A DNA stretch of 37,133 nucleotides from a virus: positions 1 to 37,133 of IMG/VR virus record IMGVR_UViG_3300045988_104136; one strand, written 5' to 3'. The position numbers and the translations under genes are program-made. The notes beneath the pieces are model-generated. The model was given only the letters and a program-made list of their open reading frames with translations. It made no database searches and was not told where the DNA came from. Position 1 is the stretch's first letter. Every line of letters begins with the position of its first letter. Positions 1,895 to 27,282 of the stretch are shown one piece after another.

Positions 1895-3055
1895 CTACTT
1901 TTTTTTTAAGTTAATAACAACGTTTTCTGTTTTCGCACTATCTTCAACTTCAACAGCACCAATAACATCTCTTTTCATATCTTCTGCAGTAACTCTATAT
2001 AATCCTGTAGAATTTTTATTTGCTTTGAATACAGCATTACCACTTGCATTAGTTGTCTTTATTTGCCCATTAAAGTTAACTTTAGCTCCTTCTACATTTG
2101 CTGCTTCACCATCTTTAACATTAATTGTTATATCTACTCTACCTTCAGAATATGAACCAGGTAATATAACAGCAAATGGAAATCTTACTGATTCATCTGG
2201 TTGTAATGAATTTATTGGATTTGGTATTTCCCAACCAAGTCTCATTGTTACTCTTAAGGCAACCATATCATCTTGTGCCAAGTTATATAAAATTTCTCCT
2301 GTTGCTGGATCTTGAATTACAGCTTGATCTAATACTTTAAAAGTAATGTCTTGTCTAATTGCATAAACTGCTTGTGAGAAATCCCCTACAATCATTTGTG
2401 CTAATGATTTATCCCAAGCTCCATTATCAACATATGCTTTATTTAATCCATCAATTTCTGTTCCTTTAATTGGTTGTCCGTTGTTATCTAACATTGTTCT
2501 AAATGCAGATTTTACATTCATACCACCAACTATACTATTTGGATTATATCCACTTTCTTCTACATATGACATAGCTTTATCTATAGAAAGATATAATGTA
2601 TCTAAAGGTGTTACAGATGCTCCTGCATTTAATGTAGATGTTAATATATCAGCTCTAAATCCTGTTGGCTTATCTACCCCTGTAAATACAGCTTGATCAA
2701 ATTTTTTTCCCATAGCCTCTTCTACTCTTGGTCTTACTTCTCCCCAAATATCATAATCGGCATCATCTAATACATTCTCTGGAATAGGTACTATAACAGC
2801 CATTTCTTCAGCTGTAATATACTTTTTATCCCAAGCCATCTTTGTTAATTGTTTTCTAGCATTATCGCTTCCTTGCCAATACACTAGTGGTAGTGCATCT
2901 AACACTCTCATTTTTGTTTTATTAGAAGTCATATTAGGTAGTCTTCTAAACATTTGCATTGCTCTTGATTGTTTTATAGCACCTTGTATAATTTCTTGAG
3001 CTACTTGTTCATCAATCAATGTTTCTGCATTACTTCTTGATATCATTTGTCCCAT
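1895..3055 (-). CDS. Major capsid protein (HK97 fold) with a C-terminal CarboxypepD_reg/prealbumin-like display domain
   Basis: 386 aa downstream of the scaffold gene. Typical MCP core (…AEEMAVIVPIPENVLDDADYDIW…). C-terminus reads GRVDITINVKDGEAANVEGAKVNFNGQIKTTNASGNAVFKANKNSTGLYRVTAE. Confidence 0.9.
   Translation of the reverse strand: MGQMISRSNAETLIDEQVAQEIIQGAIKQSRAMQMFRRLPNMTSNKTKMRVLDALPLVYWQGSDNARKQLTKMAWDKKYITAEEMAVIVPIPENVLDDADYDIWGEVRPRVEEAMGKKFDQAVFTGVDKPTGFRADILTSTLNAGASVTPLDTLYLSIDKAMSYVEESGYNPNSIVGGMNVKSAFRTMLDNNGQPIKGTEIDGLNKAYVDNGAWDKSLAQMIVGDFSQAVYAIRQDITFKVLDQAVIQDPATGEILYNLAQDDMVALRVTMRLGWEIPNPINSLQPDESVRFPFAVILPGSYSEGRVDITINVKDGEAANVEGAKVNFNGQIKTTNASGNAVFKANKNSTGLYRVTAEDMKRDVIGAVEVEDSAKTENVVINLKKK
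1898..1908 (-). other. Candidate recoding site: A9 run (minus strand AAC TTA AAA AAA AAG TAG) at the 3' end of the capsid gene
   Basis: T9 on plus at 1899..1907. The 0-frame stop is at 1895..1897 and the +1-frame upstream stop is at 1906..1908. The two frames therefore overlap open only within the homopolymer. Confidence 0.45.
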
Positions 3056-3799: not shown

Positions 3800-3873
3800 T
3801 GGCGCAAACTAATGGATTCGAACCAATACAAACAGTTTTGGAAACTGTTGTGCTACCATTACACTAAATTTGC
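3800..3873 (-). tRNA. tRNA-Trp (anticodon CCA), 74 nt with encoded CCA end
   Basis: Hand-folded sequence: GCAAATT TA GTGT AATGGTA GCAC A ACAGT TTCCAAA ACTGT TTGT ATTGG TTCGAAT CCATT AGTTTGC G CCA. There is one U-U mismatch in the T stem and one G-U in the acceptor stem. Confidence 0.75.
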
Positions 3874-4149: not shown

Positions 4150-5620
4150 ATTTTTTCTTTTCCCTTCTACTTGTCTGTCTTACTGTTGCTAGTTTTCCTG
4201 TTTCTGGATTAACTGCTATTGTTATATTTTTTCCATGCACATAAAAACTCTTTCTACCTTTTGAATCTTCTTTAATTGTACCATATCCTATTGGATTTTT
4301 CAATGTGTCTTGTACATCTTCAAATGTTACATTTCTAGCATAAGTCCTTGATATTATATGTTCTCCAATTTCTGTTATTTTTACTCCATTTACTTTACTT
4401 CCTATAATATCACTATTATTATACTTGTTAGCTATTTTAGTTACATTAGCTATTTGTGTACTAATATTTTTATCCTGATTTCCCATGTATAATCTACTAT
4501 TATCTTTAACTAATGATGTTTGTTTTATAAAATCATCTAACTCATTTTGATGTGTTTTATAAATTAATGAACGTTTTGCAAAATTAGTTTTTGTTTCTAA
4601 AATAAGTTTATTATCATTCATATTAGATTTCAGAATGCCTTGTAATCCTGCTAATTGTTTTTTATCATTTCTAATTTGTCTTTCCATTCTTCTTTGTATT
4701 TGTGTTGCTTCATATTTGCTTATCTTTTTTCCATTATATTCTACTTTTTCATTTTTCCAAGCATTTAATTGTTCTTGTGAATATGTCCTAGCAGAGCCTT
4801 CTAAATATGGATGCCAATCATGTCTGCAATTTACTCCTTTAAACCCTGTTACTTCTCCATAACCAATATCTCGCAAACTTAAATATCCTTTTTTTCCACT
4901 TCTACTAACTATCTTTCCTTGCCATTTTGCATGTTCTGGTCGTGCTCCACTGTGTGCTGTAATCTCCATTAAATCCCAACCTAATTCATCAGCTCTTGCT
5001 TCTTGTATCTTTCCACAATTTTGATTTATAGCTGTTACTATATTTGTTCTAACTGCACTTTCTATACTTCTTTTAGCACCAGATGGATATTGTATTATTG
5101 CCCCTTGTTTACTTATACTTTTTATTTCATCTAATATTGCTTGTGTATAGCTTTTAACACCTGTACTTGTATACATATAAGCATTATTTATAGCATTATA
5201 GAACTGAGTCTGTGCTGTATTTGCTGTTGTCATACATAAATTTTGCAAATTACCTGATGTTCTTTGTATAGTTGCATTCATTGTTTGTTTTATACTTTCA
5301 CTTTGCGCTAAAGGTGTAGGATCTAATCCTGCTTCTTTATATATTTCGTCATCATAACTTAATGATATTTCGGATGCTTCTGTAAATATTCTGTTTACTT
5401 CTTCATAACTTGTATTATTATATTCTGCTACTAGTTCTACTATATCCTGATATAAAATGCCCATTTCTTGAGCAATTTTTATATCATTTATAACTACGGT
5501 ATTCGCATATCCAAAATTAGCTATTCTTGTTGCTATTTCTTCTATTATTTGTAATTCTAAATTACTATAAATAGAATTAGCTTGTTTTTCTATATTAATA
5601 AAATCTTTTTCTGTTAGCAT
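4133..5620 (-). CDS. Minor head protein, SPP1 gp7 / Mu F family, with an extra ~110-aa toxin-like C-terminal domain
   Basis: MuF core motif is present (…SIESAVRTNIVTAINQ…ITAHSGARPEHAKWQGKIVS…NCRHDWHPY). The C-terminus reads ITEIGEHIISRTYARNVTFEDVQDTLKNPIGYGTIKEDSKGRKSFYVHGKNITIAVNPETGKLATV. Confidence 0.85.
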   Translation of the reverse strand: MLTEKDFINIEKQANSIYSNLELQIIEEIATRIANFGYANTVVINDIKIAQEMGILYQDIVELVAEYNNTSYEEVNRIFTEASEISLSYDDEIYKEAGLDPTPLAQSESIKQTMNATIQRTSGNLQNLCMTTANTAQTQFYNAINNAYMYTSTGVKSYTQAILDEIKSISKQGAIIQYPSGAKRSIESAVRTNIVTAINQNCGKIQEARADELGWDLMEITAHSGARPEHAKWQGKIVSRSGKKGYLSLRDIGYGEVTGFKGVNCRHDWHPYLEGSARTYSQEQLNAWKNEKVEYNGKKISKYEATQIQRRMERQIRNDKKQLAGLQGILKSNMNDNKLILETKTNFAKRSLIYKTHQNELDDFIKQTSLVKDNSRLYMGNQDKNISTQIANVTKIANKYNNSDIIGSKVNGVKITEIGEHIISRTYARNVTFEDVQDTLKNPIGYGTIKEDSKGRKSFYVHGKNITIAVNPETGKLATVRQTSRREKKKYGIEE

Positions 5621-7065
5621 TACTCTTCTTCCTCTGCATTGTTAGGAGTAAATCCAAAAGCCTCTTGATTACTCATTTTTTCTTGCTGTATTTTTTCTAA
5701 TTCTTCTTTTACTTGTTGCTCATTTAAGTTTCTATAATTAATCATATAAGATTCTTTGCTTCTTAAGTTTTGAGACACTTCTTGCATTGCCCTTACTTTT
5801 TCTGCTCCTCTATCTTCTATTATGCTATCATCAAAATCTATTGTTACAACACTCGCATCTATACTGACATTTCCAAAAACAGTAGAAGCATAAGCAATTG
5901 CTTTTATAATAGTAATTAAACTATCTTCTAACATTTGCTCATGCTTCTTTATTGTTCTGAACATATCTGAATTTTCGGATATAACCCCTGTGGCTGTTTG
6001 TATTGCTTGTCCATCAAATTTGTATCTTTCTTGTCCAAATCCAACCTTACTTGATAATATGTTTAATTGATAATTTACTGTACTAATAAATTGATCTGAT
6101 CTTAAATTTGCATCATCATGTTCTATCATTTGGTCTTTCTTAAAACCTTGTGGCATACGATATACGGATATATCATTTGGGTCAAATACCATTTTGCCTT
6201 CGCCATCATCATATGATAACATTTCACTTGATACAAAAATTCTTCTTCTTCCTATTGTAGTCTCGTTATCTAATCCATCATATGCATTATCTAAACACTT
6301 TAATGTATCTATTGCATTAGCATAAACAGATAAACCGAATGGCGTTTCGCTATCTATATTGTTACAAATATTTGGTTTAATAATAGAAAACCATGGAATA
6401 TCACTCTGTGTATCAAATTCTTCTAAAAATCCTTCTTTTTCTTTTTCATTTGCTTCTACAAAAGAACTATATTTACCTTTAAACATATAGTTCTTTATTA
6501 CATAATTTCCTTTATCATTAAAAACATGCATTGCTATATAAATATATGTTTGTCCTTTTTTATGTTTGGTTGTAACAAAAGCACATTCTGTTATCTTTCC
6601 ATTTTCCCATGTTAAAGGTATTATTTTTTTACATTCTACAAATTCTAATTTTATTTTTGCATTTGTTACATCTAATATATTCTCTTCTTGTTCTATGTCC
6701 TGTACTGAAACTACTAATGCTCCTGTACCAATAGCAAATGATTTTTCTAAACCTTGATTTATAATTACTTCTGCGTTGTTTTGTTGTAATATTTCATTTA
6801 ATGCTTTTGTATCTTCATCTTTTTGCAAATTAATAGATACTTTTTCATTAAATAATAAATCTGCCCAATCTTCTGCGACTTTTTTAGCTCCTTGCATAGA
6901 CTTCTTTTCCATTTTTACTTTTCTTTGACCATTATAAATATAGTAATTATGGAATCTTCGTACTTTGCCTCTATACCAACTTGACCAAATATCTATATAT
7001 TTTTCCCAATTTAACTTTTCTGATATGTCATATCCTTCATTACTAAAAAATTGTTGTAAGTTCAT
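5620..7065 (-). CDS. Portal protein (SPP1 gp6-like)
   Basis: 481 aa between TerL and MuF, stop/start coupled, with the acidic C-terminal tail typical of portals. Confidence 0.9.
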   Translation of the reverse strand: MNLQQFFSNEGYDISEKLNWEKYIDIWSSWYRGKVRRFHNYYIYNGQRKVKMEKKSMQGAKKVAEDWADLLFNEKVSINLQKDEDTKALNEILQQNNAEVIINQGLEKSFAIGTGALVVSVQDIEQEENILDVTNAKIKLEFVECKKIIPLTWENGKITECAFVTTKHKKGQTYIYIAMHVFNDKGNYVIKNYMFKGKYSSFVEANEKEKEGFLEEFDTQSDIPWFSIIKPNICNNIDSETPFGLSVYANAIDTLKCLDNAYDGLDNETTIGRRRIFVSSEMLSYDDGEGKMVFDPNDISVYRMPQGFKKDQMIEHDDANLRSDQFISTVNYQLNILSSKVGFGQERYKFDGQAIQTATGVISENSDMFRTIKKHEQMLEDSLITIIKAIAYASTVFGNVSIDASVVTIDFDDSIIEDRGAEKVRAMQEVSQNLRSKESYMINYRNLNEQQVKEELEKIQQEKMSNQEAFGFTPNNAEEEE

Positions 7066-7068
7066 CTT

Positions 7069-8292
7069 TTATCTCCTACTATTAATTAAATTTTCATAAA
7101 AACTATTTATTGAATATTCAAATGCGTCCAAACTGTCTATGTCTGTTGTTCCATCGTCTAATCTTTCATCTGGTTTATTATCATTCCACAAAGCATCTTG
7201 AAAAGCTTTTGTTATTATCGTATTTTTTCTTAATATAAAGAATCTTCTTTGTGCCATTAATGTGCTACTTAAAAATATTCTGTCATTTATTAACCCTTTA
7301 CTACAATCTACTACTTGCACTGGTAATCTCTCCTTTTGACATCTTCTGATTAATCCTAAAGTTATTACATTCCCTAATGCTCCATAATCACAAAAAGCGT
7401 ACTGACATTTATCATATTTGTCGTACACTCTTTTATAAAACTCTATAAACTTTTCATATATTTGCTCTGGGTCATAAACTCCAGATAAATCCATTTCGTC
7501 TAAAACATAAACATTTCTAAAATTATATGTAATGCCACTTGCTACAAATTTTATTTTAGACTTTCCAGCACCATAGTCTACTCCTATTGTTACTATTGCT
7601 AGTTGCTCTTTTACATTATCTACTAAAAAGTCCTTTGTCTTATCAGCAAATAACATATATATTGTTCCTTCAGCAGCTTTCCAATCTCCTAATATATATC
7701 TATCAAAAAATACTGTTCCTCTATATTCTGTTTCTAACGCTTGTAAGACTTCTTTTGCTAAAAATGGATTGTCATATAAAGTATATTTTTGTTGATAAAT
7801 ATCCGCATCGCTATCTAAAAATTTCTTAAACCAATGTGAAGGTCCTTCTGGATTGCAGGTTCCGTCAAATTTACTGTATGGTTTGTCTAACCTAGATTTA
7901 AGCATTTGGAAAACGCCTTCATCCCAAGTCGCAACCTCATCTCCATAGCAATATTTAAAACTTGGCCCTCTTATTTTATTTATATGCTTTTTGTTGTCTG
8001 CTCCTAAACAGTAACATTTTTCTCCAAACAAATAAGCTGTATTATCAGCCTTTATTTCAGAAACTAATTCTGTTCCCCATATGTCTTGTAATGGCTCTAT
8101 TACATTTCTTTGCAAAGTTCCTTTAGTATTTCCTAATATTACAGTTAGTCCTGGTTTTCCTATTCCATTTCTTATTCTTTTAGGTATTACATAATAATCT
8201 AAATATGTTTTTCCACTTCTTGTAGCTCCATATTTTATATTCCATCTTCTGTTGGCATTGTCTAAAAATTCGCTTTGCTTTTCTGAAAACAT
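7069..8292 (-). CDS. terL: Terminase large subunit (PBSX-type, headful)
   Basis: 407 aa. Walker A-like YGATRSGKTY is present, along with the nuclease-half acidic residues, and the gene precedes the portal. Confidence 0.9.
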   Translation of the reverse strand: MFSEKQSEFLDNANRRWNIKYGATRSGKTYLDYYVIPKRIRNGIGKPGLTVILGNTKGTLQRNVIEPLQDIWGTELVSEIKADNTAYLFGEKCYCLGADNKKHINKIRGPSFKYCYGDEVATWDEGVFQMLKSRLDKPYSKFDGTCNPEGPSHWFKKFLDSDADIYQQKYTLYDNPFLAKEVLQALETEYRGTVFFDRYILGDWKAAEGTIYMLFADKTKDFLVDNVKEQLAIVTIGVDYGAGKSKIKFVASGITYNFRNVYVLDEMDLSGVYDPEQIYEKFIEFYKRVYDKYDKCQYAFCDYGALGNVITLGLIRRCQKERLPVQVVDCSKGLINDRIFLSSTLMAQRRFFILRKNTIITKAFQDALWNDNKPDERLDDGTTDIDSLDAFEYSINSFYENLINSRR

Positions 8293-19861: not shown

Positions 19862-20605
19862 TTAAATCACCTCTTTTAAAAATTTATTTACAAAATATAT
19901 TTGCCCTTTACCAGTTACCTTAGTTGTAGGTTTTGTAATAGGTGTTCCATCTGGTTTGTTTATTACTGTCTTTTTTACTTCAAATAATCCCATATCCATT
20001 GCTTTTTGTGTTGGTAAATTCCAATTCTGTCCTTTTTGTTTTATTAAATATCCTTCGTTTCTTAATTTTTCGAATAACCTGTTTTGACCAATTTCATATC
20101 CATTTTGTTTTAATATTTTTGCTAATTCATTTATAAGGACACTATTTTTAGATGTTTCTACACTATCTGCAAATAAAACTTTTGGTTTTTGCTTTTCTAA
20201 TTCTTCAGCTAATTCTGCCGCTTTTCTTAATGCTTCTGGTAATGTTTTAGGAATTTCAAACATTTGTCTAGCTTTCTTTTCTACTTCAATAAAATATCTT
20301 CTAATTTTTCTACCTTGCTCATTATTCTCTACCATTGCTATTTCTTTTGCTGTATCTAAAGTAAGTGCATATTCTGTTGTCTTGCTTCCTAAATTACTCC
20401 CTTCACGTTTCACAAAATTGTGATATGTGGTAAAATCAACATCTTCAACGAATCCATATTGTTCTATTCTTTGTTTTATCCAATCACTAAATTTTCTTTT
20501 ATTGTTTAATGCTGTATGTAATTCTCTTGCATTAACTAATTGTTCTTGTCTATCATTTTCATAGATTTTTATTAATCCATCTTGAAACAATGTCATATTA
20601 ATCAT
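19862..20605 (-). CDS. Antirepressor (AntA N-terminal domain + KilAC C-terminal domain)
   Basis: The N-terminus reads LVNARELHTALNNKRKFSDWIKQRIEQYGFVEDVDF. The C-terminus reads LINELAKILKQNGYEIGQNRLFEKLRNEGYLIKQ…. Confidence 0.8.
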   Translation of the reverse strand: MINMTLFQDGLIKIYENDRQEQLVNARELHTALNNKRKFSDWIKQRIEQYGFVEDVDFTTYHNFVKREGSNLGSKTTEYALTLDTAKEIAMVENNEQGRKIRRYFIEVEKKARQMFEIPKTLPEALRKAAELAEELEKQKPKVLFADSVETSKNSVLINELAKILKQNGYEIGQNRLFEKLRNEGYLIKQKGQNWNLPTQKAMDMGLFEVKKTVINKPDGTPITKPTTKVTGKGQIYFVNKFLKEVI

Positions 20606-21171: not shown

Positions 21172-22146
21172 ATGTCTACTGTTGACAGAATTTTAGAACT
21201 CGTTAAAGAAAGTGGTTTAACAGCAAAAGAATTTGCCGAAGGCGCTAATATTGCTGGTGGTAGTATAACTGATTGGAAAACTGGTCGTTCAAAACCATCT
21301 GTTGAATCTTTACAAAAAATTGCAAAATATTGCAATGTTCAATTAGAATGGTTGACTGGTGATAGCGACTATAGGACTAAAGAAGAAGCACTAGAACATT
21401 TTATAGATAATCAAAATCGAATTGTAACTTTACAAACCATACAATTAAACTATGATAAAGTAATTGATTGTAATTTAAATGAAAAAGATATTGATGAGAT
21501 AGTTGAATTATTAAATTTTAGGCATTTAACCTCATCTCCTAAAGAATATTATGTTAATTATATAAAAAAATATTTGGATAAATTCGAACCTCAAAAAAAG
21601 AAAAAAATTAAAGATTTATTTATTGAGATTCTTAAAGCTATGATTAGGCAAATTGATAATAATCATTATTACCATTATTTAGTTTCATCAATTGAAAAGA
21701 TGATTTCTAGTAATCACTCAAACAATAAATCAAATGATAATAAATTATTTTATATTCCTATTGTTGGAAAAATAGCTGCTGGAAAACCAATATTAGCTGA
21801 AGAATATTTAGAAGACTATTTACCTATAGATCCTAGTATTTATGGTTTAAATACTTCTGATGATTTGTTTTTTTTAAAGGTATCTGGAGAAAGTATGAAT
21901 TTAAAAGTACACAATGGAGATTATGCATTAATCCATAAACAAGATTATGCAGAAAATGGAGATATTATTGTTGCTATTGTTAATGGAGATGATGAAGCAA
22001 CTTTAAAAAGATACAAAAAAATTAATAATGAAATAATAATGTTAGAACCAATGTCCACATATCCAATGGAACCAATTATTATTAATTTAAAAGAAACTAA
22101 TTTTAAAATAATAGGAAAAGCTATTGGACAATTTGGAAAATTTTAA
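21172..22146 (+). CDS. CI-like repressor: XRE HTH + long linker + S24 (LexA-like) autopeptidase domain
   Basis: The N-terminal HTH reads LTAKEFAEGANIAGGSITDWKTGRSKPS. The C-terminus carries VSGESMN (Ser) and ATLKRY (Lys). GGAGGTG ribosome-binding site. Confidence 0.9.
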   Translation: MSTVDRILELVKESGLTAKEFAEGANIAGGSITDWKTGRSKPSVESLQKIAKYCNVQLEWLTGDSDYRTKEEALEHFIDNQNRIVTLQTIQLNYDKVIDCNLNEKDIDEIVELLNFRHLTSSPKEYYVNYIKKYLDKFEPQKKKKIKDLFIEILKAMIRQIDNNHYYHYLVSSIEKMISSNHSNNKSNDNKLFYIPIVGKIAAGKPILAEEYLEDYLPIDPSIYGLNTSDDLFFLKVSGESMNLKVHNGDYALIHKQDYAENGDIIVAIVNGDDEATLKRYKKINNEIIMLEPMSTYPMEPIIINLKETNFKIIGKAIGQFGKF

Positions 22147-22150
22147 ACAA

Positions 22151-22181
22151 AAGATAAGTAGAAATACTTATCTTATTTTAT
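22151..22181 (+). terminator. Intrinsic terminator after the repressor gene
   Basis: aagataagta-gaaa-tacttatctt forms a perfect 10-bp stem, followed by attttat. Confidence 0.75.
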
Positions 22182-22192
22182 AGGAGGCAAAA

Positions 22193-22306
22193 ATGGATTA
22201 CGAAAAAATAAATAAAGCTATGATGGAAGTGCTAGAAGAAAAATATAATGTAAAAATTGAAGCTAAAGTTTTAAGAAAGGAGGATTGCAATGGCAAAAAG
22301 AGGTAA
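22193..22306 (+). CDS. 37-aa ORF overlapping the integrase start (uncertain)
   Basis: AGGAGG lies 5 nt before the ATG. Product reads MDYEKINKAMMEVLEEKYNVKIEAKVLRKEDCNGKKR. Confidence 0.3.
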   Translation: MDYEKINKAMMEVLEEKYNVKIEAKVLRKEDCNGKKR

Positions 22307-23432
22307 TGGAGAAGGTTCTATCTTCTACTCTGAAAAATTAAATAGATGGGTTGGACAATTTACTGCAGGTAGAAAAGCAGATGGTAAATTAAATCGTAAA
22401 TCTGTTTATGGTAAAACTAGAAAAGAAGTAAAAGAAAAAATGACTAAAGCATTAGCAGAAGTACAACAAAGAACTTTTATTGAAAAAAATGATATAACAG
22501 TTTATCTTTTAGGCAATGAAATGTTGAATTTAAAATATAATTCAAATACTATAAAAGGTACATCATATACAACAATGCATTATCCTCTTATGAAGATAAA
22601 AAATAGTGATCTAGGTAATATGGAAATTCAAAAAGTAACTAGAAGTAACATACAAACATTCTTAAGCACGATTACAAATCTTTCTAATTCATATATTGAA
22701 AAAATAATTATTGAGTTAAATACAATTTTTAATGAAGCTATTAATAGAGATTATATTATTAAATCTCCAATGAAAAACATAGTTATACCAATATCAAAAA
22801 AAATTGATAAGAAAGTTGAAGCTTTTACTATAGATGAACAAAAAAAATTAATTAGTAAATTTAAAACTAATAAATATGGCGATTTATTTTCTATTGCAAT
22901 GTTTTCTGGAATGAGAATTGGAGAAATATTAGCATTAACACCAAAAGACGTTGATTTGACTAACAACATAATACATATAACTAAAACTATTTCTAGATCT
23001 AAGGATAATAAAAATATAATAGGAAAGACGCCCAAAACATCTACTTCTTATAGAGATATACCAATAACAGCACTTTTTAGAAAAAATATTGAAAATGCTT
23101 TAAACAATATGCAAAAAAATCCTAACGATTTAATTTTTTGTACAAAGCAATTAACAATACTAAAATCCAGTAATGCAAATTGTTTTTTTAAGAGGCTATG
23201 TAACAAAGAACCAAAAATAAATAGAAACGTTAATTTGCATATGCTTAGACACACATATGCAACTAGATGTATTGAAAGTGGAATGCCTGCAGAAGTTTTA
23301 CAAAAATTATTAGGACATAAAAATATAACGACAACAATAAATACTTATACAACAATTTTTGATAAATACAAAACAGATGAAGTATTGAGAAGTACTCAAA
23401 ATATTGCATTAAATTTAGGATTAAAAATCTAG
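22290..23432 (+). CDS. int: Tyrosine site-specific integrase
   Basis: Catalytic signatures FSGMRIGEILAL, HMLRHTYATRC and LGHKNITTTINTYT (R…HxxR…H…Y) are present. Confidence 0.95.
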   Translation: MAKRGNGEGSIFYSEKLNRWVGQFTAGRKADGKLNRKSVYGKTRKEVKEKMTKALAEVQQRTFIEKNDITVYLLGNEMLNLKYNSNTIKGTSYTTMHYPLMKIKNSDLGNMEIQKVTRSNIQTFLSTITNLSNSYIEKIIIELNTIFNEAINRDYIIKSPMKNIVIPISKKIDKKVEAFTIDEQKKLISKFKTNKYGDLFSIAMFSGMRIGEILALTPKDVDLTNNIIHITKTISRSKDNKNIIGKTPKTSTSYRDIPITALFRKNIENALNNMQKNPNDLIFCTKQLTILKSSNANCFFKRLCNKEPKINRNVNLHMLRHTYATRCIESGMPAEVLQKLLGHKNITTTINTYTTIFDKYKTDEVLRSTQNIALNLGLKI

Positions 23433-23453
23433 TTGCATTAAAATTGCATTAAA
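23404..23453 (+). repeat. TTGCATTAAA repeats (3 copies): candidate integrase arm-type sites, left set
   Basis: Copies at 23404, 23433 and 23444. The last two are 11 bp apart and lie immediately after the int stop. Confidence 0.45.
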
Positions 23454-23682
23454 TTAATAATCTTATTTATATAAAAAATAGCTGTAACCTTTATATTGCA
23501 ATAGTTACAGCCAATAATGTATTGTTTATTAGTTTTGTGTATATGGTAAATTTTGTACTTTTTGTATTTTCTCTTCATTTATTATATTTTTTTATAACGT
23601 GCTATTTAAAGCACTTTTCTAGCTTTTCAATTTCTCGTACTTTTTATAATTTTACTTCGTTTTTTATAACTTTTCTTTGGCG

Positions 23683-23704
23683 TTGCATTAAACTTTGCAT
23701 TAAA
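23683..23704 (+). repeat. TTGCATTAAA repeats (2 copies): candidate arm-type sites, right set
   Basis: Copies at 23683 and 23695 (12 bp apart), about 230 bp from the left set. Confidence 0.45.
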
Positions 23705-24023
23705 ATTTATATTTATTTTTTGTCTATTTTCAGTGAATTTTTTAGAGAACTTTTCAATGAACCTTAAATATTTTTTTATTATATGTATTTTTTTATATAA
23801 TGTCAAAAATGTTTAGCAGTTTATATTAGTATTCTATGTATGGCTTGATACCACTGCATTTCAGCAGTATTATCGTGACAATCGATTCTAAGGCATTTTT
23901 ATTATCAAATAGAGTAATTATATGGGTGAAATTATACATTTTTTGTTAATTTTCGGATTTTTCTAAAACTTTCCGTTTAACTTATGTATTTATGTTTACT
24001 TTGTCGTAAGAAATTTGTCGAAA

Positions 24024-24064
24024 CAAAAAAGTAATTAGAATTTAATCTAATTACCTTTTTTTGA
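24024..24064. terminator. Bidirectional intrinsic terminator separating the TAC cassette from attP
   Basis: gtaattaga-atttaa-tctaattac forms a perfect 9-bp stem, flanked by an A-run (24024..24030) and a T-run (24056..24063). It overlaps the stop of the SecB-like gene. Confidence 0.8.
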
Positions 24065-24457
24065 ATCTAAATCTTTAATTACATTATTTACATTTATAAC
24101 AGGTAGTATTAACCCATTAACATTTGAATTAATAGTATATATAGAAACTATTGATCTAACATAAGGATATAAAATTGCTATTGCATTTGGTTCAAAATTT
24201 ATATTTTCATCATTTTTTTCTTCTGTAAAATATCCTGTAAGCTTTACTATCATTTCAAATGGGAAATTATTTTCTTCTGCATTTTCGAATACTTTTGTTA
24301 CTAATTCTACCTTCATGTTATTTTCTTCTCTTTCTATATTTTTATATATAGAAAAATCTATTGTAACTGGTTGTGGCTTGAAATTATCATTATTTTTAAA
24401 ATTCACTTCATTAACTACATATTTGTTAAATCTCAATTTACTTTTATATTTCTCCAT
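24047..24457 (-). CDS. SecB-like chaperone (candidate chaperone of a TAC system)
   Basis: LRFNKYVVNEVNF, FEMIVKLTGYF and NAIAILYPYVRSIVSIYTINSNVNGLILPVINV parallel E. coli SecB …[32 protein letters not shown]. It has a TAATG overlap with the upstream gene. Confidence 0.75.
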   Translation of the reverse strand: MEKYKSKLRFNKYVVNEVNFKNNDNFKPQPVTIDFSIYKNIEREENNMKVELVTKVFENAEENNFPFEMIVKLTGYFTEEKNDENINFEPNAIAILYPYVRSIVSIYTINSNVNGLILPVINVNNVIKDLDSKKGN

Positions 24458-24708
24458 TATGCTGCCTCCAATAAATTACTTTTCATTTTTTTGTTTATTT
24501 TCATTTTTTCAAATTTATTCTTTTTATTCTTATGTACCCAAGTATTTTCTATTTCTATATTTATATCATAATAACTACTTTTTTCATATTCATCAATTAT
24601 TAAGCCATTATCAATTAGCTCTTCTAAAAGTTCATCCGCAGTCATATTTTCCACTAACTCATTTACTTTTTCTTCAAATTCTTTTAAATTCAAATCAAAA
24701 ATATCCAT
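24457..24708 (-). CDS. 83-aa protein with an acidic N-terminal half and a Lys-rich tail (candidate antitoxin with chaperone-addiction tail)
   Basis: Product reads MDIFDLNLKEFEEKVNELVENMTADELLEELIDNGLIIDEYE… then WVHKNKKNKFEKMKINKKMKSNLLEAA. A GAGAGGTG ribosome-binding site is present, and the gene sits between the ART-like and SecB-like genes. Confidence 0.55.
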   Translation of the reverse strand: MDIFDLNLKEFEEKVNELVENMTADELLEELIDNGLIIDEYEKSSYYDINIEIENTWVHKNKKNKFEKMKINKKMKSNLLEAA

Positions 24709-24724
24709 TTTACACCTCTCATAA

Positions 24725-25315
24725 TTAATAAAAATAAACTATACTATCATATTTTTCTTTGCTTAATTCATTATATTCATATATATTATATATATATTTA
24801 TTATCTTTTACACATACCATTTTTCTAGGATAGTTTTTTAAGGATTGTAAAAATCTATTCGTTTTAATTGTTTCTATAAAAGTTTTTATTATTATATTCC
24901 TTTTGATAAGCTTTCTTTGATATAGCATATTTATTATTGCTGCTGTTTTATTTTTAGCGTTTATAAATTCTGGCTTTGTTGATAATTTTCCTTGATATTT
25001 TTCAACTAATATTTCAAATTTTAAAAGCATTTCTTTATCGTCCAAATTCAAAATATCTGTATCTTTACATTTAATATCAGCTTTAACTACACTCCTTTTA
25101 TTTTGTAGTTCATCGTATTTAGGAACTCTATTTAAATCGTCCCTTAATTCTTTAACATTCCAGTCAACAGCATCCTCATACTCAAAAAAGAAATATGCAC
25201 CGAAGCCTAAAAATAGTTTATTCTTTAAATCTTTTTTTATTTCAAAATTATTGCTACAAATTGATTCGATATTCTCTTTATCTGTTCCATGATATCCTTC
25301 TATTTCTACATCCAT
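24725..25315 (-). CDS. Candidate H-Y-E (PARP-like) ADP-ribosyltransferase-fold toxin
   Basis: GYHGT (His9), LGFGAYFF (Tyr41) and a C-terminal YIYNIYEYNE are present. An AGGAGA ribosome-binding site is present. Fold assignment is by motif recognition only. Confidence 0.5.
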   Translation of the reverse strand: MDVEIEGYHGTDKENIESICSNNFEIKKDLKNKLFLGFGAYFFFEYEDAVDWNVKELRDDLNRVPKYDELQNKRSVVKADIKCKDTDILNLDDKEMLLKFEILVEKYQGKLSTKPEFINAKNKTAAIINMLYQRKLIKRNIIIKTFIETIKTNRFLQSLKNYPRKMVCVKDNKYIYNIYEYNELSKEKYDSIVYFY

Positions 25316-25472
25316 TTTTTCTCCTATTATATTATATGTTTTAATGTATTAATAGTTTATAATAATTTATTTTTATTTTCAACATTTAAATCATATTATA
25401 TTATCAATATTATTTGCAAAAAAGACTTAAATTAATCAATTTATTTTATTTTCATATCGTTTTTTATGTTTT

Positions 25473-25515
25473 ATTAACATTTTCATTACATTTCTATTAC
25501 ATTTTATCACATTTT
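25473..25515. repeat. Four helically phased degenerate repeats (ATTAACATTT / ATTACATTT / ATTACATTTT / ATCACATTTT) upstream of the TAC cassette
   Basis: Starts at 25473, 25485, 25496 and 25506, giving spacings of 12, 11 and 10 bp. Confidence 0.35.
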
Positions 25516-25557
25516 TTATATTATGTAAATAAGTTAGTATAATCCTTGATTTATAGG

Positions 25558-25599
25558 CATAAAAAAAGAGGTGTAGCATAAACATTACACTACACCTCT
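25558..25599 (-). terminator. Strong intrinsic terminator after the endolysin gene
   Basis: Minus RNA reads AGAGGUGUAG-(13 nt)-CUACACCUCU followed by UUUUUUUA. Confidence 0.85.
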
Positions 25600-25612
25600 T
25601 ATACTTTTTATA

Positions 25613-26344
25613 TTATTTTACTCCACCTGTCCATTTAGCGAAGCCTATTTTGTAGTTATTAGATCCATCCACTTTATATCTAACCATAGGTCTATCATTA
25701 AATATACCAAAACAATCACACTCTTCACGAGGATTTAAATATCCTATCTTTTTAGTTAAACTTGTATCAGCATATATATTTTCTATTGTGCTTCCATTTA
25801 CATATTTTCTCACTGGTTCATCACTTCCTCCACTATAATCTTTTTCTTCTACAGGTTGTGCTTGTAAACCTAATTGTTCTCTTATTTTATTCAAAAATCT
25901 TTCCCAGCCTAAATCTAGAGTCCTGTGTGGGCAATATTTACCGTTATAATCTTGGTGTTTTGTAACCTTCTCTATTCCCCAACCGTATTGTTTTAAAAGA
26001 TAAGCTATATAACATGCTGCTAAATTTTCTGCTTCATCAAAGCGTTCTCCAGCAGACTTGCTATAACAAATTTCTATAGATATTTGAGTTCTATTACCTT
26101 TACCACTTCCACCATCTCCACAATGCCAAGTATTGCGATTAAAAGGTATTCCTGTTACTACTCTTTCATTATCTACTGCTGCATGAAATGATACCTTATT
26201 GTTATTACCTAACATATAAGAAATCTCTGACATGGCACTTGCATCATTTGCTGTGTTATGTACGCAGATTCCTTGTGGTGTCATCTCATATGGGCATTTA
26301 ATAGAATATTTAGAAGTTGGACACGTTACATTAGTTATTTGCAT
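25613..26344 (-). CDS. Endolysin: N-acetylmuramoyl-L-alanine amidase (Amidase_2/PGRP fold) with a C-terminal wall-binding domain
   Basis: GICVHNTAND…SFHAAVD…WHCGDG…ISIEICY…KHQDYNGKYCPHR is present. ATG 26342..26344 lies 9 nt after AGGAG and is preferred over the track start at 26353. Confidence 0.9.
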   Translation of the reverse strand: MQITNVTCPTSKYSIKCPYEMTPQGICVHNTANDASAMSEISYMLGNNNKVSFHAAVDNERVVTGIPFNRNTWHCGDGGSGKGNRTQISIEICYSKSAGERFDEAENLAACYIAYLLKQYGWGIEKVTKHQDYNGKYCPHRTLDLGWERFLNKIREQLGLQAQPVEEKDYSGGSDEPVRKYVNGSTIENIYADTSLTKKIGYLNPREECDCFGIFNDRPMVRYKVDGSNNYKIGFAKWTGGVK

Positions 26345-26459
26345 CAGTATCATCTCCTATTCCATCATTTTCTGTATTTGAAAAGTCATTTTCTTTTATA
26401 TTTTTTTGATATAATTCTTCATTAAACTGTACAGTTTCTTCAAATATATTATCGTCCAC
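26331..26459 (-). CDS. 42-aa very acidic mini-ORF between the holin and endolysin genes (speculative)
   Basis: GTG 26457..26459 lies 7 nt after AGGAGG. Product reads VDDNIFEETVQFNEELYQKNIKENDFSNTENDGIGDDTDANN and overlaps the endolysin start. Confidence 0.25.
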   Translation of the reverse strand: MDDNIFEETVQFNEELYQKNIKENDFSNTENDGIGDDTDANN

Positions 26460-26461
26460 GA

Positions 26462-26806
26462 CTATTCCTCCTTTTTGTTTTTTAATATGTCAAATATTTT
26501 AAGCTCTAGTCCTGCTTTCTTTAAATTTTCTGCAATTGACATTATTTCCATTACACATATGTAAATTGTTATTACACTTGCTACTGCACTTAAATTAAAC
26601 GCATATTCTACTACATAGCCAATAACAATAGCTACTATTAATAAGCACTTATGTAATAGTCCTTCTCGCATTACTTTACTATCTACCTTCTTATTTATTA
26701 CTGCTTGTATATATCCTGTTAAAATATCAAGTCCACTAAAAATTAGCGGTGTTATTACTTGCCATGCTATACTGCTAAAACTTAATGTTTTTATTATTTC
26801 TTCCAT
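26462..26806 (-). CDS. Holin (Phage_holin_4_1 / TcdE-like family)
   Basis: LDILTGYIQAVINKKVDSKVMREGLLHKCLLIVAIVIGY… is present with multiple TM segments. ATG 26804..26806 lies 5 nt after GGAGG. Confidence 0.85.
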   Translation of the reverse strand: MEEIIKTLSFSSIAWQVITPLIFSGLDILTGYIQAVINKKVDSKVMREGLLHKCLLIVAIVIGYVVEYAFNLSAVASVITIYICVMEIMSIAENLKKAGLELKIFDILKNKKEE

Positions 26807-26808
26807 TT

Positions 26809-27174
26809 TTACCTCCATGAAATTCTTTTGATTGTACTAGAAGTGTCTCCACTTCCACCATTCTGTACAAAACCTGTATTAAAGTCTACTGTAGAAATAG
26901 CGTGATGATTTGTATTGTTATTCCACTCGACATAAGATGCATGAAGCCATTTTCCACTATCTGCACGTGTAAAGTATAAATTCATTTCTACATTGTTTGC
27001 TCCTGTACTATACAGTTGTACTTCATTTGCATTTTTGATGTCTTCTATAGTTACACTTGCTCCCATTCCTAAGTTAACATCTTGACTTTTCCATTCGCTG
27101 TTTTGTTTTGTTTTTATTTTGTCTTCTGGTGCATTTATTCTTTCTTGTAATTCTAAAATAAGAGGCTTAGACAT
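26809..27174 (-). CDS. Small tail-fibre-associated beta-rich protein
   Basis: ATG 27172..27174 follows AGAGGTG. The N-terminal PLILELQERI resembles the ILELEKRI of the upstream gene. Confidence 0.5.
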   Translation of the reverse strand: MSKPLILELQERINAPEDKIKTKQNSEWKSQDVNLGMGASVTIEDIKNANEVQLYSTGANNVEMNLYFTRADSGKWLHASYVEWNNNTNHHAISTVDFNTGFVQNGGSGDTSSTIKRISWR

Positions 27175-27282
27175 CGTCTTCACCTCTTTTCTTTATTTCA
27201 CTAAAATGTAGCTCTCTCTTTCTCTCTTAGAGTATCAATGGTTTCACGTTTCAGTATTCTTTTCATTTTACATCTTCCTTTC

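Follow-up and report, generated by a model that had tools for sequence, protein, structure and literature searches.

A three-gene unit on the minus strand of a temperate phage genome, at positions 24047..25315 (1,269 bp) of IMG/VR record IMGVR_UViG_3300045988_104136, is probably a toxin-antitoxin-chaperone (TAC) module of the CmdTAC (PD-T4-9) kind, carried as an independently transcribed moron by a temperate Clostridia phage and situated at the end of the prophage by the attachment (att) site. The window analysed is the whole 37,133-nucleotide stretch of that record, positions 1 to 37,133. The co-directional genes are referred to as gene 1, gene 2 and gene 3 in 5' to 3' order. An earlier interpretation made from the sequence without database searches (the sequence-only reading) had proposed a diverged Firmicute-phage version of CmdTAC with the same gene order. 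Predicted folds, homology, gene order and gene coupling all speak for that proposal; the part that did not stand is its assignment of the toxin to the H-Y-E class of ADP-ribosyltransferases (ARTs), the toxin having instead an H-Y-hydrophobic site. The cassette and its translation signals are laid out as follows.

24725..25315, minus strand: gene 1, putative CmdT-like ADP-ribosyltransferase toxin of 196 aa, assigned from the open reading frame (ORF), homology and model
25325..25321, minus strand: ribosome-binding site AGGAG, 5 nt ahead of the gene 1 ATG, read from the sequence
24457..24708, minus strand: gene 2, putative CmdA-like antitoxin of 83 aa, assigned from the family alignment, position and C-terminus
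24720..24713, minus strand: gene 2 ribosome-binding site GAGAGGTG, within the 16-nt spacer between genes 1 and 2, read from the sequence
24459..24457 (stop) and 24457..24455 (start), minus strand: TAATG overlap of genes 2 and 3, with GGAGG at 24469..24465, read from the sequence
24047..24457, minus strand: gene 3, putative CmdC-like SecB-family chaperone of 136 aa, assigned from a profile match and model

The coordinates, strand and sizes of the three reading frames agree with the sequence-only reading, as do the 16-nt spacer with its ribosome-binding site and the TAATG overlap, and every peptide string it quoted is found in the translations. All three ORFs were judged real on the strength of conserved homologues for each and of AlphaFold2 models with a predicted local distance difference test score (pLDDT) of about 90 for genes 1 and 3. 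Spacers of 9-23 nt with purine-rich ribosome-binding sites are common to all homologous loci, and because the stop/start overlap is preceded by GGAGG, genes 2 and 3 are considered to be translationally coupled.

Profile matches and its model identify gene 3 as a predicted CmdC-type SecB-like chaperone. It matches the PADLOC model PD-T4-9_C over its full length (E 8.2e-19), PD-T4-9 being the original name of CmdTAC (10.1101/2024.02.24.581848), and the same model matches six of six chaperones scanned from related loci (1e-17 to 1e-22). The chaperone of L103, a related locus of canonical type, is 45 % identical. Pfam SecB is matched below threshold (E 8e-4), and the NCBIfam SecB equivalog TIGR00809 gives 20.1 bits where 102.8 would be required. 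A housekeeping SecB of protein export was considered for gene 3 and rejected on this sub-threshold score and on its operonic association with a phage toxin-antitoxin pair. PF02556 is nevertheless present in most of the 108 homologues of gene 3, and a profile built from 46 family sequences finds Haemophilus influenzae SecB (1fx3) at E 2.3e-6. The AlphaFold2 model of gene 3 (pLDDT 90.4) returned SecB or the Mycobacterium tuberculosis TAC chaperone Rv1957 as all of its top 18 Foldseek matches, at template modelling (TM) scores of 0.63-0.72; the sequence-only reading, which had staked its case in part on gene 3 modelling as SecB, was right on this point.

Gene 2 found no match in the profile libraries at E <=0.001 (the best was phrog_1352, 0.005) and none in PADLOC; CmdA is regarded as too variable for use in calling CmdTAC. 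In its family alignment the start, MDIFD, is invariant, the N-terminal half is acidic and helix-prone, and the tail half has invariant aromatic positions at Y41, Y47 and W57-x-H59. The Lys-rich tail is variable and terminates in L-E-A-A, of which A82 and A83 are invariant and E81 is present in at least 90 % of sequences. The acidic N-terminal half and Lys-rich tail had both been picked out beforehand, and the alignment adds the invariant terminal Ala-Ala. Antitoxins of deeper relatives end in EAA, GEAA, RRAA or LLVA, with the Ala-Ala end retained beside toxins only 33-34 % identical to gene 1 and Val-Ala found in a relative at 29 % identity, while the antitoxin of L103 starts with MDIY and ends with GDAA. 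CmdA of E. coli has LAA or AA at its C-terminus and is a substrate of ClpXP; an exchange of Ala-Ala for Asp-Asp leaves it without function (10.1101/2024.02.24.581848). The alignment thus supports the assignment of gene 2 as a probable CmdA-like antitoxin with a degron-like C-terminus. Among near-identical copies of the antitoxin (P0284 and P0286), the Lys-rich KNKKNKFEKMKINKK tract (~24470..24530) varies through in-frame deletions of 3 and 6 residues, which suggests slippage-prone length variation in what would be the chaperone-binding tail.

The 22 homologues in the family of gene 1 share 52-99 % identity and are all 196-198 aa long. Gene 1 carries the motifs Y8-H9-G10-T11 and L36-G37-x-G39-x-Y41-F42-F43 of a nicotinamide adenine dinucleotide (NAD) site. 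H9, G10, T11, G37, G39, Y41, F42 and F43 are invariant down to 52 % identity in the 17-sequence family alignment, and H9, G37, G39 and Y41 remain so in 115 of 115 aligned superfamily sequences. The sequence-only reading had recognised ART signatures in GYHGT (His9) and LGFGAYFF (Tyr41); matches of the gene 1 family profile to PARP13 and PARP10 in the PDB align precisely these residues with the PARP His and Tyr, PARP13/ZAP being the best sequence match. In E. coli CmdT, a Y41A substitution abolished both defence and toxicity (PMC11618068). Against Pfam, gene 1 matches PARP over residues 8-42 at E 0.0056, under the curated cut-off, and its PHROG match is to an unannotated family. The AlphaFold2 model (pLDDT 90.2, predicted TM score 0.84) has as its best Foldseek matches in the PDB the VPA0770 toxin, NatT, diphtheria toxin, PARP2, PARP4, PARP13, PARP12 and ParT; ART-fold toxins, diphtheria toxin and PARPs make up all of the top five and most of the top 13. 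The ART fold anticipated for gene 1 is in this way reflected in its best structural matches, albeit with weak E-values.

The connection of gene 1 to CmdT comes from remote homology. Its family profile found 555 relatives among 1.84 billion representatives, and the PADLOC toxin model PD-T4-9_A matches 56 of the 115 remote relatives that were aligned. Comparison by hhalign of the gene 1 family with a canonical CmdT-type set, defined as 58 sequences with [Q/E]-x-Q of which 36 match PD-T4-9_A, gave a probability of 99.9 % and E 2.6e-34 in an alignment of 178 columns spanning the full length of the family, and by BLASTP gene 1 is 25 % identical to the L103 toxin (E 9e-12). Sequence and model together support the prediction of an ART fold for gene 1 and its placement in the CmdT superfamily.

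Several observations weigh against this assignment of the cassette. Gene 1 itself has no PADLOC match even at E 10, and PD-T4-9_A matches a single one of nine close clade representatives, marginally (6e-4). Foldseek probabilities for gene 1 reach 0.99, yet E is no better than 5e-3 and TM about 0.44, a weakness that may be likened to the published comparison of CmdT with exotoxin A by the CmdT authors, where the root-mean-square deviation was 6.9 Å (PMC11618068). The canonical comparison rests on the 58-sequence set and L103 rather than on a validated E. coli CmdT sequence; E. coli CmdTAC was recovered neither when plasmids and phages were searched by tblastn with a consensus-like canonical member nor when complete E. 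coli genomes were searched by blastn with L103. Between the gene 2 family and the antitoxin of L103, hhalign finds a weak match (E 0.0017, probability 15 %) that covers one helix. Lastly, gene 1 lacks E, D or Q as third triad residue, with Met166 in that place and Arg164 two positions upstream, and the catalytic competence and target of an enzyme with Met166 are uncertain.

The CmdT triad has been described as H-Y-[E,D,Q] (PMC11618068). In the canonical set a single column is invariably E, D or Q, namely the Gln of Q-I-C-V-K (58/58 sequences), and three independent alignments place R164-K-M166-V-C168-V-K(-D) of gene 1 opposite [Q/E]-x-Q-I-C-V-K. The clade nearest gene 1, at 26-52 % identity, has [R/K]-x-[M/V/I] at this motif in 15 of its 15 members. 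A Glu within YIYNIYEYNE had been put forward as a possible third-motif residue; it was rejected, the stretch being variable in the 17-sequence family alignment and the equivalent position being Met166, so that the site is H-Y-hydrophobic, not H-Y-E. Glu148 of K-T-F-x-E was likewise tried as a substitute acid and rejected, since it is invariant in close homologues and unconserved in the deeper H-Y-hydrophobic clade and the superfamily. That position 166 corresponds to the ART catalytic position is suggested by the strand order of the model (strand 141-149, loop, strand 161-169). PARP1 and PARP10 share the pattern [catalytic residue]-hydrophobic-x-hydrophobic-x-[D/N], and the gene 1 column fits it. 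PARP10 is an H-Y-I enzyme, and H-Y-hydrophobic mono-ADP-ribosylating PARPs catalyse without an acidic or amide third residue, as gene 1 would have to do if it is active; by its motifs, gene 1 appears to be an H-Y-hydrophobic ART of the same class as these PARP10-like enzymes. Position 166 is Gln in 73, Met, Val or Ile in 26, Tyr or Phe in 10 and Glu in 6 of the 115 superfamily members, which makes this third "catalytic" position look plastic across the CmdT superfamily. Further groups among the 115 representatives have Q-x-Y, R-R-E or C-x-[I/V/M/F] at the 164/166 motif.

Two other columns switch between the canonical set and the gene 1 clade, Ser29 becoming Asp and Trp35 becoming Phe, and the remaining conserved columns are common to both; the co-switched Asp29 might partly replace the role of the missing Gln. 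The chemistry and target of gene 1 may differ from those of CmdT. At the level of mechanism the main rival explanation, lesser ones being addiction, a dead enzyme and a host-takeover ART, is one in which the architecture is unchanged and the toxin has shifted to another nucleic-acid site, to a protein or to NAD+ consumption, in place of N6 of adenine in the GA dinucleotides of mRNA, which is what E. coli CmdT modifies. Such a shift is possible, though it is not the favoured reading. It would account for the replacement of a Gln invariant in 58 of 58 canonical sequences by Met, Val or Ile in 15 of 15, for the change from Gln or Glu to Arg or Lys two residues upstream, and for the switches at positions 29 and 35 that occur in step. 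The closest sequence matches of solved structure, PARP10 and PARP13, are moreover H-Y-hydrophobic or inactive, and the top structural matches include VPA0770 and NatT, members of toxin families that degrade NAD. Set against these points, all other conserved columns are shared by the two clades, and both keep the chaperone family and the antitoxin design, an argument for an unchanged overall logic. The [R/K]-x-[M/V/I] sub-clade comprises at least 15 clusters at 50 % identity, always in toxin-antitoxin-chaperone operons, and could have a nucleotide or target specificity other than that of CmdT. It is rather doubtful that it forms a functionally distinct RNA-targeting ART branch that reached an H-Y-hydrophobic site independently of the interferon-induced mono-ADP-ribosylating PARPs.

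The missing third residue might also mean that gene 1 is a catalytically dead ART-fold protein, in a cassette that is a decaying remnant or works non-enzymatically, and the best PDB sequence match of its family profile is indeed to PARP13/ZAP, an inactive PARP. This is very improbable, however: the NAD-site residues are invariant to 52 % identity and H9, G37, G39 and Y41 across the superfamily sample, the reading frames, degron and coupling are intact, and there would be little reason to keep an antitoxin and a chaperone for a harmless protein. From the strict conservation of the NAD-site residues, together with the antitoxin and the chaperone, it can be argued that gene 1 still encodes a dangerous enzyme.

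The cassette is conserved as a unit. Toxin (196-204 aa), antitoxin (83-94 aa) and SecB-like chaperone (131-141 aa) follow one another in that order, overlapping or a short spacer apart, in 17 of 17 related loci for which genes were listed; a search of Clostridia prophages for ART-small-SecB triads had been suggested by the sequence-only reading. The triad persists in relatives down to 29 % identity, in phage as well as chromosomal contexts; every copy has intact reading frames, and the degron and translational coupling are retained. That routine annotation would leave the toxin and antitoxin "hypothetical" is evident both from homologue names and from the library scans. The near clade is found in two of 185,579 species genomes, both metagenome-assembled genomes of uncultured Clostridia, and in six IMG/VR contigs. 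A nucleotide search with positions 22000-27000 found no match among GenBank phages, tblastn of gene 1 against phages found none, and tblastn of gene 3 against phages found one weak match, to an unannotated faecal phage contig.

Its surroundings vary, and the cassette is mobile with respect to its neighbours. Several unrelated phages (L004-L006, L093, L094) have it directly past the endolysin and ahead of an integrase or recombinase, while in L001, L091 and L092 it stands in chromosomal, non-phage settings. Across the three integrated prophages L087-L089 it is 98-100 % identical, though the endolysin is just 44 % identical in two of these phages. Conversely, gene 1 is present in one of 80 IMG/VR loci with related endolysins, and the cassette is absent beside endolysins of 93-96 % identity, namely in L007 (96 %), which has no cargo in the slot, and in L009 (93 %). 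The L009 slot (IMG/VR 7000000630_000159, 4153-5021) holds a 154-aa SocA/Panacea-domain antitoxin (Pfam E 2e-25) that overlaps a 134-aa partner without Pfam match, followed by an IS200-like transposase. The slot between endolysin and att is an exchangeable site for toxin-antitoxin or defence cargo.

Classical addiction modules pair a stable toxin with a labile antitoxin, as the Ala-Ala tail would make gene 2, and the cassette lies at the prophage edge; it could accordingly serve to stabilise the prophage, killing cells that lose or excise it, with no role in excluding other phages. This is unlikely: the two CmdTAC systems studied by experiment are carried by prophages and work against phage by abortive infection, the alternative toxin-antitoxin cargo in the slot of the sister phage follows the pattern of a defence hotspot, and the cassette also occurs in chromosomal, non-prophage settings. 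Addiction and defence are not mutually exclusive.

The interpretation as an independently transcribed moron depends on the sequences around the genes, which include the following elements.

25600..25566, minus strand: intrinsic terminator of the lysis operon, 16-pair stem with T-run (-21.6 kcal/mol, z -7.0)
25529..25501, minus strand: candidate cassette promoter, with -35 TTTACA at 25529..25524, a 17-nt spacer and an extended -10 TG-a-TAAAAT
25316..25500, minus strand: long AT-rich 5' leader, ending in the AGGAG ribosome-binding site
24060..24025, minus strand: AT-rich terminator over the gene 3 stop codon (-14.9 kcal/mol, z -5.6), with U-runs on both strands
23433..24024, no strand assigned: non-coding region between cassette and integrase, with the presumed attP, assigned from the loss of homology to L087-L089

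The cassette had been described as bracketed by strong intrinsic terminators, and both do fold, at z -7.0 upstream and z -5.6 (minus strand) downstream. The upstream hairpin at 25566..25600, which is kept in L087 and L089, insulates the cassette from late transcription. The hairpin at 24025..24060, missed by a consensus terminator scan because its stem is AT-rich, also folds on the plus strand (-10.0 kcal/mol, z -3.7) beside a U-run, which makes the bidirectional function claimed for it plausible. An AT-rich upstream region of its own, put at ~245 bp by the sequence-only reading, measures about 250 bp (25316..25565). The candidate promoter within it matches the consensus at 10 of 12 positions, plus the TG. 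Sigma-70-like sites are not enriched in the region over shuffles, so the promoter assignment rests on conservation across loci and not on the consensus match: the element (TTTACA or TTGCAA, then TGATATAAT) is kept 5' of the cassettes of L004 and L003, at ~50 % protein identity. Its conservation supports independent, presumably lysogenic, expression of the cassette. Immediately past the -10, the leader contains two exact copies of AAATGTAAT (25504..25496 and 25493..25485) and one imperfect copy, within 25476..25504 on the minus strand, phased at 11 nt and partly kept in L004 and L003. The AAATGTWAT repeat is not enriched window-wide, its local phasing and conservation alone being suggestive, and it is a conjecture that the repeats form an operator for autoregulation.

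On the other side of the cassette, homology to the integrated prophages L087-L089 runs through the cassette to ~24023/23989, resumes briefly at 23830..23991 and does not continue beyond that patch. Past the break these prophages have host genes and no integrase, so that the cassette is the final phage unit ahead of host genes; the moron slot between lysis genes and att that had been proposed for it is thus borne out, the cassette abutting att in the integrated copies. No tRNA is present at the att region, the only one in the window lying elsewhere, and an Rfam scan of 23300-25700 found nothing above chance. The GC fraction of the cassette is 0.20-0.245, against 0.29-0.345 for the lysis and tail genes. 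A conserved promoter of its own, flanking terminators, lower GC, mobility between phages and non-phage occurrences all speak for moron behaviour.

The same arrangement bears on the idea that gene 1 is a host-takeover ADP-ribosyltransferase in the manner of T4 Alt, ModA or ModB, used in lytic growth and helped by genes 2 and 3 in its folding or delivery. The gene is phage-encoded, and its fold matches in BFVD include ART domains from phage polyvalent proteins. However, the cassette is separated from the late operon by a strong terminator, has a promoter of its own and also occurs outside phages, and a degron-tailed partner with a CmdC-family chaperone suits a restrained toxin rather than a virion or early effector. 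Of the explanations considered, host takeover is the one given least credence.

Two further features of the att side were noted. A perfect 12/12 sigma-70 consensus (TTGACA, 17 nt, TATAAT) lies on the minus strand at 23778..23806, in the non-coding region between cassette and integrase and just past the loss of homology (~23830). It faces the 3' end of the integrase gene, antisense to int, and might drive an antisense or small RNA or a 46-aa ORF at 23578..23438. Two of the integrated prophages have insertions directly 3' of the cassette terminator and ahead of the conserved 23830..23991 patch: an IS200/Y1-transposase element in L089 (11426-11935) and an insertion of similar size, ~940 bp, in L088 (11293-12230).

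For a CmdTAC-like module, a mechanism can be drawn by analogy with the E. coli system. In the lysogen the operon would be expressed from its own promoter, and the three products would form an inert complex in which the gene 3 chaperone holds the unstructured, Ala-Ala-ended tail of gene 2, while the antitoxin folds and neutralises the gene 1 ADP-ribosyltransferase. On superinfection, an abundant new structural protein of the incoming phage would compete for the chaperone, leaving the antitoxin tail exposed to degradation by ClpXP. The freed toxin would then use NAD+ to ADP-ribosylate nucleic acid, most likely single-stranded mRNA, which would halt translation and abort the infection. This analogy is the ground for expecting toxicity, dependence on ClpXP and chaperone addiction of the cassette, and for the trigger, RNA target and anti-phage defence phenotype proposed for it. 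CmdT of E. coli is non-toxic alone and needs CmdA to fold, for which reason the comparison suggested by the sequence-only reading, gene 1 expressed alone versus with genes 2 and 3, would mislead.

CmdTAC is known from E. coli ECOR22, as PD-T4-9 (Vassallo et al. 2022, PMC9519451; Vassallo et al. 2024, PMC11618068), and from E. coli O112ab:H26 (Mets et al. 2024, bioRxiv 10.1101/2024.02.24.581848). The E. coli system sits in variable prophage regions (10.1101/2024.02.24.581848), homologues in Gram-positive bacteria have been reported (PMC11618068), and PD-T4-9 is listed routinely in defence surveys. Shared with the present cassette are the toxin-antitoxin-chaperone order and similar length (1,214 bp for PD-T4-9 (PMC9519451) against 1,269 bp), a toxin of the ART superfamily with His and Tyr, down to an identical number for Tyr41, a small antitoxin ending in Ala-Ala, a chaperone matching the CmdC model, and carriage in a variable region of a prophage. 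The cassette differs in its third triad position, Met (Met, Val or Ile in its clade) rather than E, D or Q, in the Arg that stands for Gln or Glu two residues upstream, in a toxin that escapes the PADLOC CmdT models, and in a host that is an uncultured gut Clostridia lineage. Its antitoxin is also smaller, 83 aa against 121 aa in O112ab:H26 (10.1101/2024.02.24.581848), from which a shorter chaperone-binding tail is expected.

Other TAC and ART systems offer partial parallels. M. tuberculosis HigBA1-Rv1957 and E. coli HigBAC likewise have a SecB-like chaperone gene directly 3' of the toxin and antitoxin genes, Rv1957 with its bound chaperone-addiction (ChAD) peptide (5mtw) can be superposed by the gene 3 model at TM ~0.65, and the C-terminal extension of gene 2, with spaced aromatics (Y41, Y47, W57), is compatible with the ChAD description (10.1101/2024.02.24.581848). 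Unlike these systems, the cassette has an ART toxin in place of a HigB RNase, and gene 2 is without a recognisable HigA or helix-turn-helix domain. With PARP10, gene 1 shares Y-H-G-T and G-x-G-x-Y-F, which align with the His and Tyr strands, and a hydrophobic residue at the catalytic Glu position; PARP10, 11, 14 and 15 modify single-stranded RNA in vitro (PMC11618068). Similarity in sequence to the PARPs does not, however, extend past the first ~45 residues, and the remainder of the fold matches weakly (TM 0.26-0.44). The product of gene 1 is also a single-domain protein of a bacterium or phage, controlled by an antitoxin and a chaperone. DarTG, ParST, NatRT and VPA0770/0769 resemble the cassette in that an ART-fold toxin, in each case among the top structural matches, is held by a cognate antitoxin. 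These pairs are, however, two-component and chaperone-free, with other catalytic motifs and other antitoxin types, such as the DarG macrodomain, and no sequence-level homology of the cassette to any of the four was detected.

The genome around the cassette is that of a temperate phage of 37 kb, as the Pfam content of the neighbouring genes confirms, and the cassette is placed between the endolysin and the integrase/att region. The Pfam scan of the neighbours assigned the following genes.

1895..3055: capsid, HK97-type
5620..7065: portal
7069..8292: large terminase
19862..20605: antirepressor
21172..22146: CI/S24 repressor
22290..23432: tyrosine integrase
25613..26353: Amidase_2 endolysin
26462..26818: holin

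A phage-encoded tRNA-Trp (anticodon CCA) is present at 3800..3873 on the minus strand, among the capsid-region genes. In the sister prophages a PBECR2/PBECR3-domain gene stands between holin and endolysin (L087:8267-8653, L088:8252-8653, L089:8231-8617); it has no counterpart in the 108-nt holin-endolysin gap of the window (26354..26461), where the sole sizeable unassigned ORF nearby, at 26809..27183, lies on the other side of the holin and has no Pfam match.

The type of system, its mechanism and its carriage by prophages are already published, and in this respect the cassette extends known biology and opens no new question. What is new is a CmdTAC-like TAC with a toxin clade of H-Y-hydrophobic type in Clostridia phages. 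The finding exposes a gap in detection: the PADLOC toxin and antitoxin models miss this CmdTAC-like branch and the chaperone alone is seen, so that present counts of CmdTAC-like systems in gut Clostridia and their phages are likely too low. A clear example of a site for exchangeable cargo is the slot between endolysin and att in temperate phages of Clostridia, with a CmdTAC-like cassette here and a Panacea-type pair in the sister phage. The branch in which a hydrophobic residue stands for Gln amounts to a natural experiment on which residues an mRNA-targeting ADP-ribosyltransferase needs, and provides a bacterial parallel to the H-Y-hydrophobic antiviral PARPs; if the toxin has indeed moved to a different chemistry or target, the motif switch would mark a functional shift inside the CmdT superfamily.

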